A stretch of 57,765 nucleotides of DNA, taken from assembly GCA_039794085.1 (NCBI GenBank), contig JBDIWC010000025.1, positions 1 to 57,765 on the forward strand, in the 5' to 3' direction. Below the pieces are notes generated by a model that had not been told where the DNA came from, ran no database searches, and worked only from the letters and a program-made list of their open reading frames with translations. Positions 1,110 through 19,083 of this stretch are shown one piece after another (position 1 is the stretch's first letter; every line of letters starts with the position of its first letter). Both the position numbers and the translations under genes were made by a program. Source of the stretch: Gemmatimonadales bacterium (GTDB lineage Bacteria > Gemmatimonadota > Gemmatimonadetes > Gemmatimonadales > GWC2-71-9).

Positions 1110-1637
1110 ATGCATAGTCGAGCCTTGATAGCGGCCCTCAGTTTGCTGCTGGTTGCAGTATCATCTGTGTCCGCTCAGGCGGCGCCCTTGGGGCAGTCGA
1201 TCCAGGGAAGGACCTTTCAAGAAGTCCACGATCTGGATCGAGCGGTGATCGAGTGGTTCACCGGCAATGTGCGAGGAGTCAGGAAGGCGGTTGTCCCTCC
1301 CGACGTCACGGCGGGGCAGGGGAGTGCCTTGCCGTTTGATGATTCCACCAGGGCCATGAAAGCGCGGGCGTCCATTAGTCGGAATGGCGGCGCCAAGGCC
1401 GCCGCGGGGGCCGCTAAGGATTGTATAGGGAGGTCGGAGGATGCGTGCTTCATGGCGGCTGACGTGGTGCTGGTGATTCGTCCGTTCCGTCGGCGAGGAG
1501 AGGGAGGCCGATTCCGCGCAGGATATGTGATTTTTACAAAGTATGGTGACACGATCCATCTCACGACGTGGTATGTTGGCTTTGAGGTGTCGGCGGAAGG
1601 GATCACCGTGACCGATGTCATCGCGGCTATGAGTTGA
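1110..1637 (+). CDS. Hypothetical secreted protein
   Basis: GGAGG upstream of ATG 1110; signal peptide MHSRALIAALSLLLVAVSSVSAQ. Confidence 0.65.
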   Translation: MHSRALIAALSLLLVAVSSVSAQAAPLGQSIQGRTFQEVHDLDRAVIEWFTGNVRGVRKAVVPPDVTAGQGSALPFDDSTRAMKARASISRNGGAKAAAGAAKDCIGRSEDACFMAADVVLVIRPFRRRGEGGRFRAGYVIFTKYGDTIHLTTWYVGFEVSAEGITVTDVIAAMS

Positions 1638-11701: not shown

Positions 11702-13006
11702 TCACTCGAGCGGGTTCGCGGCCCGCCGCGTGAGCATTCCGAACAGATCGGGATCCGCCCGCACCCGATCGTCGTCGATCCACTCCGCCTTCACCATCGC
11801 CCCCGCCTCGGCGAGCATCCGCACCACCGCCCGGTACGCCTCCTGGTCGTTCCTCCCCTCGACGAGCCAGGCATGGAGAGCCCACACGAGCGGCGTGGTT
11901 CCATGGACGTCATCGGTGACGTTCACCGGCGCCCCACGGCGTATCAGCAATTCGACGATCGTCACACGGCCCTCGTACGCTGCGAGGTGGAGCGCGGTGC
12001 GACTCTCTCCGTGGCCGCGGACCTTCCATGCCGGATCGAACCCACGATCGAGAAGAAAGCCCACGACCTCGGTACGCCCGTACCAGACGGCCATCATCAG
12101 CGCTTCGCCGACCTCTTGCCGCCACGCTGGGTCGGCCAGGCTGCGGGGTTCGTCGACGTACCGCTCGACGAGGTCGAGGCGCCCGATTCCCGCCGCCTCC
12201 TCCAGGCCGAGGGGGACGCCCCGGCGTGCCAGGTACTCCGCGGCCTCCGGGCAGCCGTTCATGAGGCAGGACCGAACGCTTCCGGGGGCGATGCGGGCGC
12301 CGCGCTCGAGCAGGAGATCGGCCAGGTCGTTCTGCACCCCGACTCGGCGCGGGTGCGCGCTGGTCATCGCGAGGTCGAGCGTCGTCGCCCCTCCGCCGTA
12401 CATGTCGGCCTCGGCGTTCACCTCCGCGCCGGCGTCGAGCAGGAGACGGGCGATCTCGACGATGTTCGGCGGCGTCTCCTGACGGTAGTTCTCCACTCCG
12501 TTCGCGGCGACGTAGTGCAACAGGGTGGCGCGATGCTGCCGGGGGGAACGGGCGTGGACGAGGTCAGGGTTCTCTTCAAGGAGTCGTTCGAGGGTGGCGC
12601 GGTCGCCGGCGATGATCGCATCGGCCGCCTCCTCGAAAGCGGAGACGGGCGTCGGGGAGCCGCCGAGCGCCTCGAGATGATGGGCCAGCCGGGGCCAGCT
12701 CTCGAATCCGTGCGCCCGCGCGATGACGAATTGCGCCTGTGCAAGCGCGCCTTCGGTGGCAGTGAGCCGCTCGCGGGCGAAACCGGCGACCTGATCGGCG
12801 TATCGTTCGGCGTCGCGCAGGTGGTGCACCCGGTCGCCCTCAGGCTGGAGCTCGAGCAGATCGCGAACCCAGGTCACGGCCCAGGCACGAATGGCCGCGG
12901 GGTCCTCGGAACGGCACGCCTTGACGAGGTCCTTGGCCCGCTTCCGATACTGGTGAAGATCGGGGTGGGGTGGAAGCGGAAGGACGTCCTGTGGGTTGGG
13001 ATACAG
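11702..13006 (-). CDS. Ankyrin-repeat protein with N-terminal LP…YRKRAKDL domain; probable CTG start
   Basis: Ankyrin repeats (TLLHYVA, TALHLAA, TPLVWAL); frame stays open 43 codons above GTG 12877 (LYPNPQDVLPLPPHPDLHQYRKRAKDLVK); GAGGAG lies 6 nt before CTG 13006, with an in-frame TGA just upstream. Confidence 0.8.
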   Translation of the reverse strand: MYPNPQDVLPLPPHPDLHQYRKRAKDLVKACRSEDPAAIRAWAVTWVRDLLELQPEGDRVHHLRDAERYADQVAGFARERLTATEGALAQAQFVIARAHGFESWPRLAHHLEALGGSPTPVSAFEEAADAIIAGDRATLERLLEENPDLVHARSPRQHRATLLHYVAANGVENYRQETPPNIVEIARLLLDAGAEVNAEADMYGGGATTLDLAMTSAHPRRVGVQNDLADLLLERGARIAPGSVRSCLMNGCPEAAEYLARRGVPLGLEEAAGIGRLDLVERYVDEPRSLADPAWRQEVGEALMMAVWYGRTEVVGFLLDRGFDPAWKVRGHGESRTALHLAAYEGRVTIVELLIRRGAPVNVTDDVHGTTPLVWALHAWLVEGRNDQEAYRAVVRMLAEAGAMVKAEWIDDDRVRADPDLFGMLTRRAANPLE

Positions 13007-13020
13007 ACGAATCTCCTCTC

Positions 13021-13126
13021 ATGGCGCCTGGAGTCCGCACTGATCAGGCTGAAAGAAGGTTCGGGATGTGGACCGCAACGGTGGGTGGGCACGGCCCTTT
13101 CCGCGGACTGGATGCGCCCCTCGCGC
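13021..13126 (-). ncRNA. Candidate structured cis-regulatory 5' leader RNA of the ankyrin gene
   Basis: Outer stem GGCGC-N4-AGUCCGC…GCGGACU-N4-GCGCC encloses hairpins GGGC-CGU-GCCC and ACCG-UUG-CGGU and closes just before the RBS. Confidence 0.55.
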
Positions 13127-13132
13127 AATGGG

Positions 13133-13161
13133 AGTATATCAGGCGCGGGGACGCCGGGCAA
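13133..13161 (-). promoter_or_regulatory. Sigma70-type promoter TTGCCC-N17-TATACT with extended -10 TG
   Basis: Minus strand reads ttgccc ggcgtccccgcgcctga tatact; spacer is exactly 17 nt. Confidence 0.7.
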
Positions 13162-13202
13162 ATGTACACCGGAGGATCGGCCGCCGTTCTCCATGGCCCA
13201 CT

Positions 13203-13946
13203 CTACGGGCGAGGCCAGCCATCCGGATCGTGGGGGTCGAATGGACGTTTCATCGCCACAAGATACGGGTGATCCTTGGCCCAAAATGATGCTTCGACCA
13301 TGCGAGCCACAGGGAGGATGAGGACGCTTTCAGCCCCTGCCTCCAGCAGGCATCCGGCCGAGCTGAGTGCCGTTGCTCCTGTCACCCACGTATCTTCGAT
13401 CAAGACGACGCGCTTTCCTGTAGTCTTCTCCGAGGCCCGGAATGCGGAGGGCTTGTACTCCTTGCGTCCGAGGGTTTCCGTCCTCTTGAACCTCACTGCC
13501 TCCACGAGGGCGTCCGCGAGCGGTCTGACGCGTGCCAGCGCCAACCGGAGTGGCTGGTGTTCGAAATCGACGCCGCGCTTTGAAGGAACTACAGTGATGA
13601 AGGACGGATCGCCACCCAGGGCGCTACGAATCTTCCCCTGGTGTGTCATCGTGTATTCGTATACGAGCGATGCGATGAGAGCGCCGTGCTCCTTCTGAAG
13701 CGTCTTGTAGGTTTGGAGTCTGGTGTACCAGGGACTCGGGTTGATGGCGGCGGTAATCGGCACGACACACTTCTGGAAAACCTCCGGAACCCCGGCATTC
13801 CGGAAGAGCATGTGACACGCGTGGCACATCTCGTACTCGTTCACCGGCCCGAGGCAGCAACGGCAGACAGAGCCGAAGTTATCGAGTTTCGGAACGCTGC
13901 CGAGGATGCCGGCTGCTTGCGCCAGAATTTCTCGGGTTGTCGGCAT
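13203..13946 (-). CDS. Phosphoribosyltransferase-fold protein with N-terminal zinc ribbon (ComF/ShosT-like)
   Basis: CRCC…CHAC; VVPS; PRPP-binding loop VVLIEDTWVTGATA. Confidence 0.8.
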   Translation of the reverse strand: MPTTREILAQAAGILGSVPKLDNFGSVCRCCLGPVNEYEMCHACHMLFRNAGVPEVFQKCVVPITAAINPSPWYTRLQTYKTLQKEHGALIASLVYEYTMTHQGKIRSALGGDPSFITVVPSKRGVDFEHQPLRLALARVRPLADALVEAVRFKRTETLGRKEYKPSAFRASEKTTGKRVVLIEDTWVTGATALSSAGCLLEAGAESVLILPVARMVEASFWAKDHPYLVAMKRPFDPHDPDGWPRP

Positions 13947-13952
13947 CCGGAA

Positions 13953-14888
13953 TCAAACGCCGACGGTGATTGGTCCCCGTAGTGCCACATCAAGGCGTTC
14001 AATCACATCGGCTGCCGATGTGATCTCAACAGCCCTGGTTCCGAACGCCCCCTCGACCACGTACTTCCTGGCCCACTCCCGAGTCCTCACCAGCTCGGAA
14101 TGCAGGAACACGGTACGGCCATGCTGCAGCGCAACACGGGCTTGAATTCGTGCCCCGGATGTGTCTGAGGCCTCAACGACGATGGTCGCGAGTGAGAGTC
14201 CGGACATCACGACGTTCCGCATCGGAAACGTCCACTTGGTCGGAGGTTGGTCCGGTGTGAACTGCGATATCAGCGTGCCTCCGGAAGCGAGGATCTCCTC
14301 CGCGAGGGTTGCATTCTCCGCAGGGTACAGGCGTTTGAGCCCGCTGCCGAGCACCGCACAGGTTACCCCTCCAGCCTGCAGGGTGGCACGGTGAGCTGCC
14401 GTGTCTATCCCAACAGCCAGGCCGGAGAGGATGACAAAGCCATCACTGACGAGTTGTGAAGTGATCTCCGCCGCGATTCCCAGTGCCTTCGGTCCTGCGG
14501 CACGCGCACCGACGATGGACACAGACCGTGTCCCCAAGGCAGCAGGCAACACGCCCCGGATGAAGAGGAGCGGTGGGCGGTTGAAGACGTCGTGAAGTGG
14601 CTCGGGGTATCCACTATCCAGCACCGTCACCGGTTCCAGTCCCTGCGCACGCCAGACGGCGAGATCCTCTCTGGCCCGTCGCAGGTCCTCCGCTGTCACG
14701 GCGCCTATGAACTGATGTACGGGATTTGGCCAGGCAAATAACCGATCCTCCTCGCCAAGTTCGACCAGACGCAACGCCGAACCAGTATGGCCGATCAGTG
14801 CCCCGAGGTGATCCTGGGGAACAACCCGTGCACGCTGGAGCGCCAAGGTGGCCGCAGTCTCGTCAAGTGGAAAGTCGGCCGCTACCAT
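13953..14888 (-). CDS. DprA/Smf Rossmann-fold protein without the C-terminal winged helix
   Basis: YPEPL…PPLLFIRG, SIVGAR, ILSGLAVGIDTAAH, FPMRN, VVEA…SG motifs; GGAGGA before ATG 14888. Confidence 0.88.
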   Translation of the reverse strand: MVAADFPLDETAATLALQRARVVPQDHLGALIGHTGSALRLVELGEEDRLFAWPNPVHQFIGAVTAEDLRRAREDLAVWRAQGLEPVTVLDSGYPEPLHDVFNRPPLLFIRGVLPAALGTRSVSIVGARAAGPKALGIAAEITSQLVSDGFVILSGLAVGIDTAAHRATLQAGGVTCAVLGSGLKRLYPAENATLAEEILASGGTLISQFTPDQPPTKWTFPMRNVVMSGLSLATIVVEASDTSGARIQARVALQHGRTVFLHSELVRTREWARKYVVEGAFGTRAVEITSAADVIERLDVALRGPITVGV

Positions 14889-15040
14889 CGTTCCTCCGTG
14901 CTGGCGACTCGGGTGGCCCTGTCCATGGGAGTATGAAGCAATACGCCCGAATATATACCGAAATAGCTGTTTCCGAAAGCTCCTACCTTCTACCCCAACC
15001 CGAAACATACGGGGACTCCTTGGCCCCATCTACTCCCCTC

Positions 15041-15481
15041 TCACCACCTCGCCGCCAGCCCCTGCAACGTCGCCGAGGCCGTGATCTCGTCATGGGGCAC
15101 CAGGAGGTAGGTCCACGGCTTCTCGCCGTATCCCGCCGCAAACACGCTCGCATGCCCGCACCACTTTACCTCCTGGAGCAGGATGTTGAACGCCTCCAGG
15201 ATGTTCCGCACCTCCTGCTCCTGGTACTGCTTGCTGGGCGGGAGAGACTTCCCCTCGACGACCCGCTCAATCTCCTCCTCGGAGAGGGTGTTGCCCTCGA
15301 TGGCGGTCGTGGCTTGAGCCCCCTTGGTCAGGGACACCAGCAGCAGGCGGCGATGGTACTCCGGCAGGAGGGGGGCGTTGGCGATCGCCTGGACGATGGC
15401 GTCGCACTGGCCCAGTTCGTAGTGTGTTTTTGAGCTGAGGTTCCAGTGCCTGCTGAATAGGAGGTGATCGTATGTGCTCAA
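15041..15481 (-). pseudogene. Chimeric remnant: Fic-family N-terminus fused to a type III restriction (Res) C-terminal tail
   Basis: ATTAIEGNTLSEEE is typical of Fic N-termini but no HPFxDGNGR motif follows; tail WCGHAS…KPWTYLLVPHD resembles, from memory, type III Res C-termini. Confidence 0.6.
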
Positions 15482-15736
15482 GACACCACACCGGACAGTT
15501 GGAGAGACAAATAATATGGCATATTTGTCCGTGACGTCGTAAACAACAGCGTTACTGATGGATAACAGGCAGTATTCTCCTAATTATCGGGACAAGAAAT
15601 CGGAGATTTGCCTGGACACTGCCCCTTCCGTCAAATTTCCGGACCTTCCACTGTGCAGTAGGTCCTCGCAAGGAGGTATACGGCGGCCTTGGCTTCATGC
15701 ATTGGTGACGCCCTCCCGCTGGCGGTGACGCATTGC

Positions 15737-17418: not shown

Positions 17419-18822
17419 TCAACGACTCCCCACCGCGCCGATCTCCCAGGCGTAGAGACTCGTCGGTACCATGCGGATGGTCACTCCTGCGACTGCCCGT
17501 TCCGCGCACCGCGAACGGGTCGTGGCGGTCACCTCCGCCAGTCCATGCTCCCGGGCGAACCGGATCAGTCCGGCCAGTTGCTCCGGTGCGTCAACGTACC
17601 GGTCGGACCACTTGACCTCGGTGGCCCAGGTGGGTGCCCCCTCGGAACCCATCTGTACCAGGTCGACCTCACCCTCCTTCCAGCGGGCGTAATGAATCGG
17701 AGTCTGGGTGTGGAACCATTGCGCCACCACGGACGTCTCGGCGAGCGGGCCCATCGCTTCGTCATCCGCGCCCACCGGCGCAAAGAGCGCCGCCCGCAAC
17801 GATGGGTTGGTCAGGTAGACCTTGAACGTAACGGCTCGCTGAAAGTGCTTCCCGGCCCGGTCCACCCGGTGCACCACCCGGATCAGGAACGCCGATTCCA
17901 GATATTCCAGGTACTTCTTGAGAGTGTTCTTGGCGACGCCGGATCCCTTCGCCAATCCCTCGAGTGAGAGCTCCCGCGATGTGTTCCACGCCAGCATCGT
18001 GAAGAGCCGGTTGAGTTCCTGGATGTCGCCGATCCCATAGAGCTGCGGCAGGTCGCGGAGCAGGACCTTGTCCACGATGTCGCCCTTGATGTACCGCATC
18101 GGATCGGCACGCACCTCGGCACTCAACGCCGCTTCCGGGTAGCCGCCGAAGTTGGCATACTCCACGAACGCCTCGTTGAACCGTTCGATGGTCCCGGCCA
18201 CGAGTTGAGGGTGGTCACTCACCCGCTCCGGAGGCGGTGCGGCATCGGTCAAGTCGAGGTATTCTGCAAAGGTGAGGGGAGGGAGGAGGAAGTCCGTGAA
18301 GCGACCAGCCCCCGACTCCAGGCTCTTGATCCGAAGCGCCGCGGCCGCCGATCCGGAAACCACGATCTTGAGGTCCGGACGATCGTCGACCAGGCGCTTG
18401 AGGTGGACCTTCCAATCCTTGAGATACTGAATCTCGTCGAAGAAGACCCACTCCAGGGCATCACCCGATGCCTCCTCGGCCAACGCGAGCAGGCGCTCGA
18501 GGGAGAGCCCGTCATAGAGGGGGAGATCCACTGACAGGTAGGCCAGTCGCTGAGGCGGAATCCCCTCTCCGAGTAGCGCCTTGATGGCATGGTGGATCAG
18601 AACAGTCTTTCCCACCCGCCGAGGACCGAGGAGGACGAGCGCCCGCCGGACAGATCGCTCCCGGACCAGGCTCAAAAAGGACTGCAGGTATGCTCGAGGC
18701 CTGAGCTCCCGGAACTGCCCCCCCACAGCATGGGGTGGCTGCCACCATGGGCTCTCGGCCTGGAGACGGCGACGGACTTCATCCGCGGGAATCTGGTACA
18801 TATTCTTGGTGGGATCATCCAT
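17419..18822 (-). CDS. AAA_14 ATPase with DUF4143-type C-terminal nuclease-like domain
   Basis: Walker A GPRRVGKT; Walker B FFDEIQ; SGS; GGYPE; EVD…EVKW. Confidence 0.88.
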   Translation of the reverse strand: MDDPTKNMYQIPADEVRRRLQAESPWWQPPHAVGGQFRELRPRAYLQSFLSLVRERSVRRALVLLGPRRVGKTVLIHHAIKALLGEGIPPQRLAYLSVDLPLYDGLSLERLLALAEEASGDALEWVFFDEIQYLKDWKVHLKRLVDDRPDLKIVVSGSAAAALRIKSLESGAGRFTDFLLPPLTFAEYLDLTDAAPPPERVSDHPQLVAGTIERFNEAFVEYANFGGYPEAALSAEVRADPMRYIKGDIVDKVLLRDLPQLYGIGDIQELNRLFTMLAWNTSRELSLEGLAKGSGVAKNTLKKYLEYLESAFLIRVVHRVDRAGKHFQRAVTFKVYLTNPSLRAALFAPVGADDEAMGPLAETSVVAQWFHTQTPIHYARWKEGEVDLVQMGSEGAPTWATEVKWSDRYVDAPEQLAGLIRFAREHGLAEVTATTRSRCAERAVAGVTIRMVPTSLYAWEIGAVGSR

Positions 18823-19083
18823 GGCACAAATAATCTCATGATCATGACGCTAGTCAAGGTGTGCGCCATAATATGTTGCCCCACAATGCTATAGCAGGCC
18901 ATCAGAGCATGCTGGACCCATGTCAACGCTATTCATCCGCAAACACAGATCCTGTGTTAATAATAGAGTCAAGATTGTGATCTTATCCGAATATGTTGCG
19001 TTATCTGTTTGGATTGCAATGCTTTATGCCATTCAACGTTCCTCCTGACCACCATGTACCGTGAAATAATTCCACGGCGATAA

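Follow-up and report, generated by a model that had tools for sequence, protein, structure and literature searches.

A widespread mRNA leader absent from Rfam

The minus-strand stretch at 13007..13161 of the window (the whole 57,765-nucleotide stretch of Gemmatimonadales DNA analyzed here) is one copy of a widespread mRNA leader that is absent from Rfam 15. The leader spans about 120 nt (13126-13008, minus strand) downstream of its own promoter, and it precedes a 434-residue open reading frame (11702..13006, minus strand) that begins with CTG and encodes a helical N-terminal domain followed by ankyrin repeats. An initial annotation had proposed a structured cis-regulatory RNA at this position. 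The element is real and catalogue-free, but its structure differs from the one first drawn. It had been matched to no named riboswitch, and Rfam 15 agrees, as no model matched the window at gathering score and the best E-value around the leader was 2.5. Moreover, the structure is conserved and covarying in homologs, and no Rfam family takes the element in. We refer to window-like leaders as type A, to those of genes with a Glyoxalase_8 N-terminus as type B, and to those of PRK05973 genes as type C. A search of Rfam with 20 type A and B loci returned only a tRNA elsewhere in L080, and the leaders of 10 type B and C loci had no match at E ≤ 1.

Homologs were gathered by protein, by DNA pattern and by covariance model. 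The N-terminal 116 residues, used as a query, matched in 12 of 101 related genomes and at 54 metagenome loci; of the latter, 51 were scanned with the model (three duplicates were excluded), which detected the leader in 41, including one remnant; 3 of the 10 misses have no upstream DNA. A gene-blind DNA pattern recovered at least 120 stretches in GTDB genomes. Among 80 matches listed by title, these represent at least nine phyla, including Acidobacteriota, Gemmatimonadota, Actinomycetota, Verrucomicrobiota and Planctomycetota, with further copies in Armatimonadota, Myxococcota, Pseudomonadota and a Baltobacteraceae genome. Within the window's own phylum, covariance model R1 matches 40 of 151 genomes. 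Whichever mechanism applies, an abundant and strongly covarying RNA class is missing from Rfam 15. The closest named relatives of the window copy are L075 and L076 from Gemmatimonadota; type A is also carried by Streptomyces, Amycolatopsis and Nonomuraea, and type C by Sinorhizobium meliloti, all of them harmless hosts in culture. Locus L012, from an unpublished genome (G016), is one row in alignments A1, A2, A4 and A5, in R1 and in the seed HMM, and no claim depends on it alone.

Three leader-plus-domain genes lie within 27 kb in one genome (G173:C6 237900-264700), up to five leader matches occur per genome (G162), and a type A copy sits on an IMG/VR viral contig (L069), the only pattern match in that collection. 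In deletion remnants (L037, L045 and L320; L197, L240, L246 and L247), the leader is partly lost and the gene kept, or the 5' half is kept and the gene lost or damaged, suggesting that the leader-gene module often decays. A close homolog (L007/L013, G069) has an intact leader and a reading frame broken within the domain.

Promoter and transcription start

The promoter read from the DNA by the initial annotation, TTGCCC-N17-TGaTATACT, is present at 13161-13133 (minus strand), with 17 nt between TTGCCC and TATACT and a TG ahead of the latter, and it is the single promoter-like site in 12800-13400, where 0.1 would be expected from shuffles. At the position corresponding to its -35 hexamer, TTGCCC (13156..13161), 46 of 112 homologs have TTG[AC], versus 7 in a control window. 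From the extended -10 element (TG-n-TATACT, 13133..13141), transcription is predicted to begin at 13126 or close to it. In 96 of 112 homologs, versus 2 of 112 in the control window, a TAnnnT box lies with its end 4-9 nt ahead of the first hairpin, P1; the first nucleotide of the RNA is therefore likely that of P1 (13126), upstream of the structure rather than downstream of its stem. Metatranscriptomes yielded two contig sets from one study, with shares of 0.15 and 0.08; a ~94% relative covers 11721-13155, and as these contigs extend beyond the promoter they are uninformative on start, strand and expression. No terminator-like site was found between the RNA and the gene in the window. An upstream out-of-frame ATG at 13022 is unconserved and was set aside.

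The CTG start codon stands at 13006, as first annotated. At the same position homologs use ATG (33), GTG (13) or TTG (1), counting duplicate loci, and CTG occurs only in the window; CTG at 13004-13006 is a weak start, a recent mutation or an assembly error.

A predicted double-pseudoknot fold that buries the Shine-Dalgarno sequence

Covariation supports a predicted type A fold consisting of two pseudoknots, a hairpin at the 5' end and, at the 3' end, a long hairpin that pairs the Shine-Dalgarno (SD) sequence. Taken singly, the window sequence is no more stably folded than shuffled versions of it (z -0.83), and the structural case therefore depends on homologs. Two measures were used. An alignment-free test used 117 distinct pattern-found leaders (the 120 listed matches minus 3 that were cut or duplicate) and compared the pairing of each strand with its own partner against its pairing with the partners from all other leaders. 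This gave z values of -11.5 for P1, -8.5 for P4 and -12.6 for the anti-SD/SD pairing, each with 0 of 10,000 permutations as extreme, although these z values are overstated because related leaders are not independent. Pair changes were counted over 64 model-found sequences, for which the nested-helix figures lean toward model R1.

All elements lie on the minus strand. P1 (13114..13126) pairs GCGC at 13126-13123 with GCGC at 13117-13114, and its loop (13122-13118) contributes to pseudoknot 2. The 5' strand of pseudoknot 1, AGUCCGC (13103..13109), pairs with GCGGACU at 13038-13032; 99.7% of its cells are paired with two-sided changes at 3 of 6 pairs (64 sequences), and it is not contained in the model that found those sequences. 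Its type A variants include GCCUGC/GCAGGC and GUCCAC/GUGGAC. Next is an unpaired, conserved purine-rich junction, G-R-R-M-A (13098..13102), a candidate tertiary or binding site whose column counts are partly fixed by the search pattern in one set and free of it in another. The P2 hairpin, GGGC-CGU-GCCC (13087..13097), is 99.2% paired, and its free pair across the 117 leaders is CG in 96, AU in 13, UA in 6 and unpaired in 2. The 3' strand of pseudoknot 2, CCC (13083..13085), forms three pairs in the window with GGG of the P1 loop (13120-13118), and across the 64 model-found sequences this helix is 92.5% paired with two-sided changes at 3 of 4 pairs. A variable linker (13064..13082) follows, which measures 14-35 nt in pattern-found copies and has longer inserts in L021, L046, L050 and L052-L054.

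The 3' half is dominated by the stem over the ribosome binding site (RBS). The 5' strand of P3, the anti-SD CGAA-C-CUUCUUUC (13051..13063), pairs with a 3' strand (13008..13020) made up of the SD GAGAGGAG (13020-13013) and UUCG; P3 is 91.4% paired with two-sided changes at 8 of 8 core pairs in the 64 model-found sequences. Within it, the P4 hairpin (13026..13049) pairs GCCUG (13049-13045) with CAGGC (13030-13026), with two-sided changes at 4 of 5 pairs, and presents the 3' strand of pseudoknot 1 (13038-13032) in its loop. P3 and P4 together contain 65 G-U versus 19 A-C cells, an excess more in keeping with an RNA from the minus strand than with a DNA element. The window's SD has a predicted unpaired probability of 0.00-0.01, and opening of the RBS would cost 8.4 kcal/mol, pseudoknots uncounted. 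The window's minimum free energy structure (-43.6) contains P1, P3 and P4, whereas the fold of the initial annotation scores -31.1.

Roughly half of that earlier fold is incorrect. The GGGC-CGU-GCCC hairpin (13097-13087) is present and backed by covariation. The AGUCCGC/GCGGACU helix likewise exists and covaries, but as a pseudoknot into the loop of P4, a hairpin that had been missed, and not as a stem closing a junction. The letters of the outer GGCGC/GCGCC stem are present; however, the leader's own partner beats the median foreign one in just 58 of 117 leaders (z -2.0 versus a control of -1.8), and the stem clashes with two covarying helices. With this stem unsupported and the 7-bp helix a pseudoknot, the closed multibranch junction is absent. 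The ACCG/CGGU letters fall in the variable linker, and the hairpin drawn from them is kept in 0 of 33 close homologs. GGCGC/GCGCC does end 4 nt before GAGGAG as described, but the RBS is not left free beyond a stem; it sits inside a 12-bp one.

No conserved ON-state pairing emerged from the two tried: the 5' purine run against the anti-SD gave z -0.2 and the linker against the SD z -1.8. The 5' GGAAAGGG run, considered as an anti-anti-SD, was accordingly rejected as lacking covariation. RNAalifold on a MAFFT alignment recovered only pseudoknot 1 and P2, plus proposed pairs 35-53 and 36-52. These two pairs entered R1 but were later discarded, since 13 of 59 cells break the equivalent of pair 35-114 and the covariation of column 52 is with the P1 loop.

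The leader tracks a three-helix N-terminal domain

The leader tracks a three-helix domain of about 55 residues, not the ankyrin repeats. A domain profile derived solely from protein-found loci places the domain after 113 of the 120 pattern-found leaders listed and ahead of 0 of 120. The seven misses are five cut loci, L123 with a deletion in the domain gene, and L100 with an ankyrin gene without the domain. For model-found leaders the domain is adjacent in 59 of 62, the three misses being remnants without the 3' half of the RNA. Of the 151 genomes of the window's phylum, 40 carry the RNA and 41 the domain, with 38 carrying both. As leader and domain are adjacent, joint inheritance alone would yield much of this linkage. 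No other neighboring gene is common to the homologs (0 of 322 other loci).

In the window, the three-helix domain (YRKRAKDL ... ARAHGFESW) lies at 12665..12979 (minus strand) and carries an insertion of about 55 residues; the minimal domain is itself about 55 residues long. A 61-residue structure prediction of the minimal domain shows three helices (pLDDT 81). Its best match among solved folds has Z 4.7 (rmsd 2.9, 52 aligned), and Foldseek with this model gave only E > 1, nothing above background, leaving no clear relative among helix-turn-helix or other solved nucleic-acid-binding folds. By sequence, the best PDB match is a chain named JUBO2 (E 0.006); the ESM Atlas returned only unnamed clusters under 0.9 and PHROGs three weak families.

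The rest of the protein varies. Pfam assigned ankyrin repeats to 65 of 73 downstream proteins, a kinase to one, leucine-rich repeats (LRRs) to one and nothing to six, and a further scan, of 25 selected proteins, revealed additional fusions to LRR, TPR and Clp_N. The "RNA-plus-ankyrin" module envisaged earlier is too narrow, since kinase, LRR, glyoxalase, Lon-N, ClpX zinc-finger and ATPase fusions also follow related leaders. A second, degenerate domain copy is seen in 8 of 63 long type A proteins (L070, L089, L097, L113, L119, L126, L140 and L147), and in L086 and L098 a single domain is split by an insertion.

Leaders of different sequence precede homologous domains

Three leader families precede the same domain fused to unrelated C-termini. 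The first ~55 positions of Pfam Glyoxalase_8 (PF20066) match 32 of 88 domain members (best E 1.5e-5), and the N-terminus of NCBIfam PRK05973, named "DNA helicase", matches 31 of 88; profile-profile comparison (hhalign) among the three domain subfamilies gave probabilities of 97.5, 95.7 and 95.7%. The window protein has no match to PF20066 (curated cut-off 23.7 bits) and falls below the curated cut-offs of both entries. By these profiles, the window domain is a distant homolog of the Glyoxalase_8 and PRK05973 N-termini and not a member of Glyoxalase_8. New here is that these two subfamilies carry leaders of different sequence and the same architecture.

The type B leader, which differs in sequence, was found in 31 of 32 Alphaproteobacteria loci; four weak matches were left out, as were L296 and L297, which match only PF20066 positions 58-134. 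Its 5' hairpin loop pairs downstream (z -9.7) and its lower stem covers the RBS (z -13.8), against a control of 0.1. A 6-bp pseudoknot into the 3' hairpin loop occurs in seven sequence variants, whose letters are partly fixed by the regex; in a structure-blind alignment of 30 leaders, 180 of 180 pseudoknot cells are paired with two-sided changes at 4 of 6 pairs. Type B C-termini comprise the Glyoxalase_8 core, glyoxalase, Lon-N and the ClpX zinc finger. In type B alignment A7 (columns 24, 138 and 152), one base covaries with two partners in 2 sequences, as in a base triple or alternative pairing. PF20066 gave one weak match in 300 genomes of the class that holds Burkholderia.

The type C leader, with pseudoknot CCCUCC/GGAGGG, precedes all 16 PRK05973 genes by eye and 15 by regex, in a sample of six genomes and ten of 15 plasmid records. 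Its covariation is weak (lower stem z -0.8, pseudoknot 2 z -2.4) because the 15 copies are too alike; a distant homolog, L298, carries a compensated version of the pseudoknot. In L299-L304 and L309-L318 the 3' strand of pseudoknot 1, UAAGGAGG, is a perfect SD-like word with no consistent start codon, possibly a decoy or standby site. No type C protein was found on viral contigs.

R1 scored none of the type B, C and D leaders tested except L283, which bridges types A and B, having type A pseudoknot letters and 22.9 bits with R1 (E 2e-4). Since R1 misses the others, their kinship to type A rests on architecture, L283 and the domain. A fourth version (L306 and L307, in the class of G101) shows by eye the P1 loop pairing, a 7-bp pseudoknot and an SD stem before domain homologs, and the leader of L305 is unclassified.

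A proposed autoregulatory mechanism

The leader is a structured element that overlaps the RBS of the gene for its candidate binder, as autoregulatory leaders do. The initial annotation had suggested recognition by the basic helical N-terminal domain of the leader's own product; the conserved, covarying leader is indeed tied to the gene of that domain, and recognition itself remains a prediction. We propose that the domain would bind its own mRNA at the predicted double-pseudoknot fold, and that binding would lock the SD-burying fold and repress translation in negative feedback. Sensing would then fall to the C-terminal part, which is interchangeable (ankyrin, LRR, TPR, kinase, glyoxalase, Lon-N, ClpX zinc finger or ATPase), such that engagement of a target would release the protein from the RNA and allow more of it to be made. 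Such a protein would be a one-component regulator acting on RNA instead of DNA.

Residue patterns in the domain suggest that the basic face of helix 1 probably contacts the leader RNA. In leader-bearing domains, basic residues occupy two positions of helix 1, separated by one turn, in 86 of 88 and 88 of 88 copies; the first is an invariant Lys in types B and C. The Lys/Arg after an invariant Ala is found in 88 of 88 and 57 of 57 copies with a leader versus 4 of 9 without. A basic residue stands at both positions in 48 of 57 leader-bearing copies found by the model versus 1 of 9 leaderless copies, which represent only 4-5 lineages and in which the substitutions include Glu or Gln, and in 3 of 3 with a deletion remnant; the scoring behind this comparison ignores both basic columns, and partial matches L323 and L324 were left out. 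Across the 57 leader-bearing copies, the second position is never acidic and the first is T, S or H in 9. Loss of these residues in leaderless copies is a hint of RNA contact, but it could instead be general decay.

We slightly favor the combined reading, in which the domain binds the leader of its gene and represses translation of that mRNA. The polarity is a guess, as the SD stem is predicted to form without protein and no ON-state pairing was found; binding could equally open the stem. A sensor role for the C-terminal part, relieving repression, is a tentative and rather doubtful step. Further points against the proposed mechanism are that ankyrin repeats persist in 65 of 73 type A proteins and that L100 retains the leader ahead of an ankyrin gene lacking the domain. 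With similar reserve we sketch an ancient, portable RNA-level one-component system, in which a double-pseudoknot leader superfamily (at least three, probably four or more classes) and a new three-helix RNA-binding domain would have co-diversified, the domain joining with dozens of sensor or decoy domains. Each protein would read its own leader and perhaps induce its own synthesis on meeting its target (such as a foreign protein, antibiotic or misfolded protein).

Alternative explanations

The leader might instead be a new riboswitch class, whose double-pseudoknot core binds a small molecule or ion and controls SD access, the domain being merely part of the regulated gene. As in riboswitches generally, a 5' element with a conserved, covarying tertiary fold stands beside an expression platform, and near-invariant unpaired bases accompany two pseudoknots at the mRNA 5' end next to the SD-burying stem, in nine phyla among the matches listed. 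The ZTP (pfl) riboswitch, RF01750, joins its 5' domain through a variable linker to a short 3' hairpin, the loop of which is pseudoknotted to the 5' domain, and the present 5' domain, linker and 3' hairpin with its docking loop resemble that aptamer. However, remnants aside, the leader precedes no other gene kind among the matches listed, unlike ZTP leaders; types A, B and C keep the domain but not the letters of the core, unlike one conserved pocket; the unrelated C-terminal domains make no shared metabolite evident; and the two pairings tried yielded no SD-freeing alternative. We regard a riboswitch as unlikely, though it would be a common orphan class with a new ligand. Less likely again is a protein-independent device, an RNA thermometer or 5'-end stabilizer that sets low, stress-dependent translation: a G-U-rich SD stem (the P3 and P4 cells counted above) and a structure that begins at the predicted transcription start would suit it, but it leaves unexplained the two pseudoknots, the link to one domain across three families and the basic-residue loss. 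Double pseudoknots are also known from HDV-like, twister and glmS ribozymes, and self-cleavage in or near the P4 loop could free the RBS; with no Rfam ribozyme match, core letters that differ between types, and a helix order unlike the nested order of HDV, we consider a ribozyme very improbable.

A further reading accepts the same domain-RNA linkage and gives it another role, that of a stoichiometric RNA partner or antidote (type III toxin-antitoxin-like, or an alarm ribonucleoprotein), in which RNA released from the mRNA would bind the domain and quiet the C-terminal effector until cleaved, for example on phage infection. Type III systems place a pseudoknotted RNA upstream of the partner gene, an arrangement also seen here, and the window copy adjoins ShosA-, SoFic- and PDC-S01-like genes while one copy lies on a viral contig. 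Yet those systems have tandem RNA repeats, a terminator before the toxin gene and an endoribonuclease toxin, whereas here the RNA is a single copy without repeats (one model match in the window), no terminator precedes the gene, the RNA 3' end is the RBS itself, Pfam scans show no nuclease domain (several C-terminal parts have no match at all), and the defense-like neighbors are absent from homologous loci. We consider this reading improbable, less so than a thermometer or stabilizer and more so than a riboswitch, and the autoregulatory mechanism remains our preferred one.

Relation to known systems and significance

The nearest parallels are ribosomal protein leaders: as described in part of PMC10931766, uS4 (E. 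coli alpha operon) and uS15 (rpsO) repress their own mRNAs through pseudoknots. As there, a pseudoknot lies at the RBS, binding by the gene's own product is proposed and the leader varies by lineage while the protein is kept. Unlike there, the gene does not encode a ribosomal protein, no rRNA target is known to be mimicked, the domain is portable across unrelated fusions, the distribution is patchy and often multi-copy, and no Rfam model matches. The element is not a ZTP riboswitch, despite sharing a 5' domain, variable linker and 3' hairpin loop pseudoknotted to the 5' domain, as it has a second pseudoknot and buries the SD at the base of the 3' hairpin; the ZTP model is not among Rfam matches to the window up to E 10. 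ZTP leaders accompany many purine and folate genes (PMC7266159, in the sections available), and no such genes were found downstream of the present leaders. Similarity to type III systems such as ToxIN ends with a pseudoknotted RNA just upstream of a putative protein partner, since tandem repeats and a terminator are lacking, the proteins scanned show no nuclease domain and the RNA overlaps the RBS. Closest by homology are Glyoxalase_8 and PRK05973, each with the three-helix domain behind a same-architecture leader; their library entries assign the N-terminal part no function or RNA partner, and the window domain differs by its long insertion.

A full-text literature search found no description of the leader, with the supplements of PMC5737381 and PMC11109978, which may bear on novelty, outside its scope. 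The word "ankyrin" is absent from the main texts of large motif surveys, and the leader was not found in the supplements of PMC2864571, PMC8632094 (one small file) and PMC6429828. In the portions available of preprint 10.64898/2026.10.21.760802, a motif (cluster 630,527) precedes glyoxalase, monooxygenase and NmrA-like genes and ankyrin is not mentioned; the 20,149 unnamed clusters of that work may include the present RNA.

These results suggest a testable function for an unannotated domain mislabelled in "glyoxalase superfamily", "DNA helicase" and "ankyrin repeat" proteins, and matched RNA-domain pairs of different sequence permit a direct test of specificity. If orthogonal, such pairs would provide compact parts for translational control (55 residues plus 120 nt).

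Genomic neighborhood

A SorX sRNA match near threshold (46.1 versus 46.6 bits) lies in L301 at 1293-1358 (plus strand), away from the leader. The window's ankyrin gene borders a small defense-like island, all on the minus strand, whose ShosA-like arrangement recurs in no homologous locus. A DprA-like gene (PADLOC ShosA, E 9e-59) and then a weak phosphoribosyltransferase-like gene, whose protein matches no PADLOC model, occupy 13203-15029 and recall the ShosTA defense pair; the island also holds a short Fic-like open reading frame at 15041-15568 (SoFic, E 3e-7) and an ATPase gene at 17419-18834 that matches PDC-S01 (E 2e-52).
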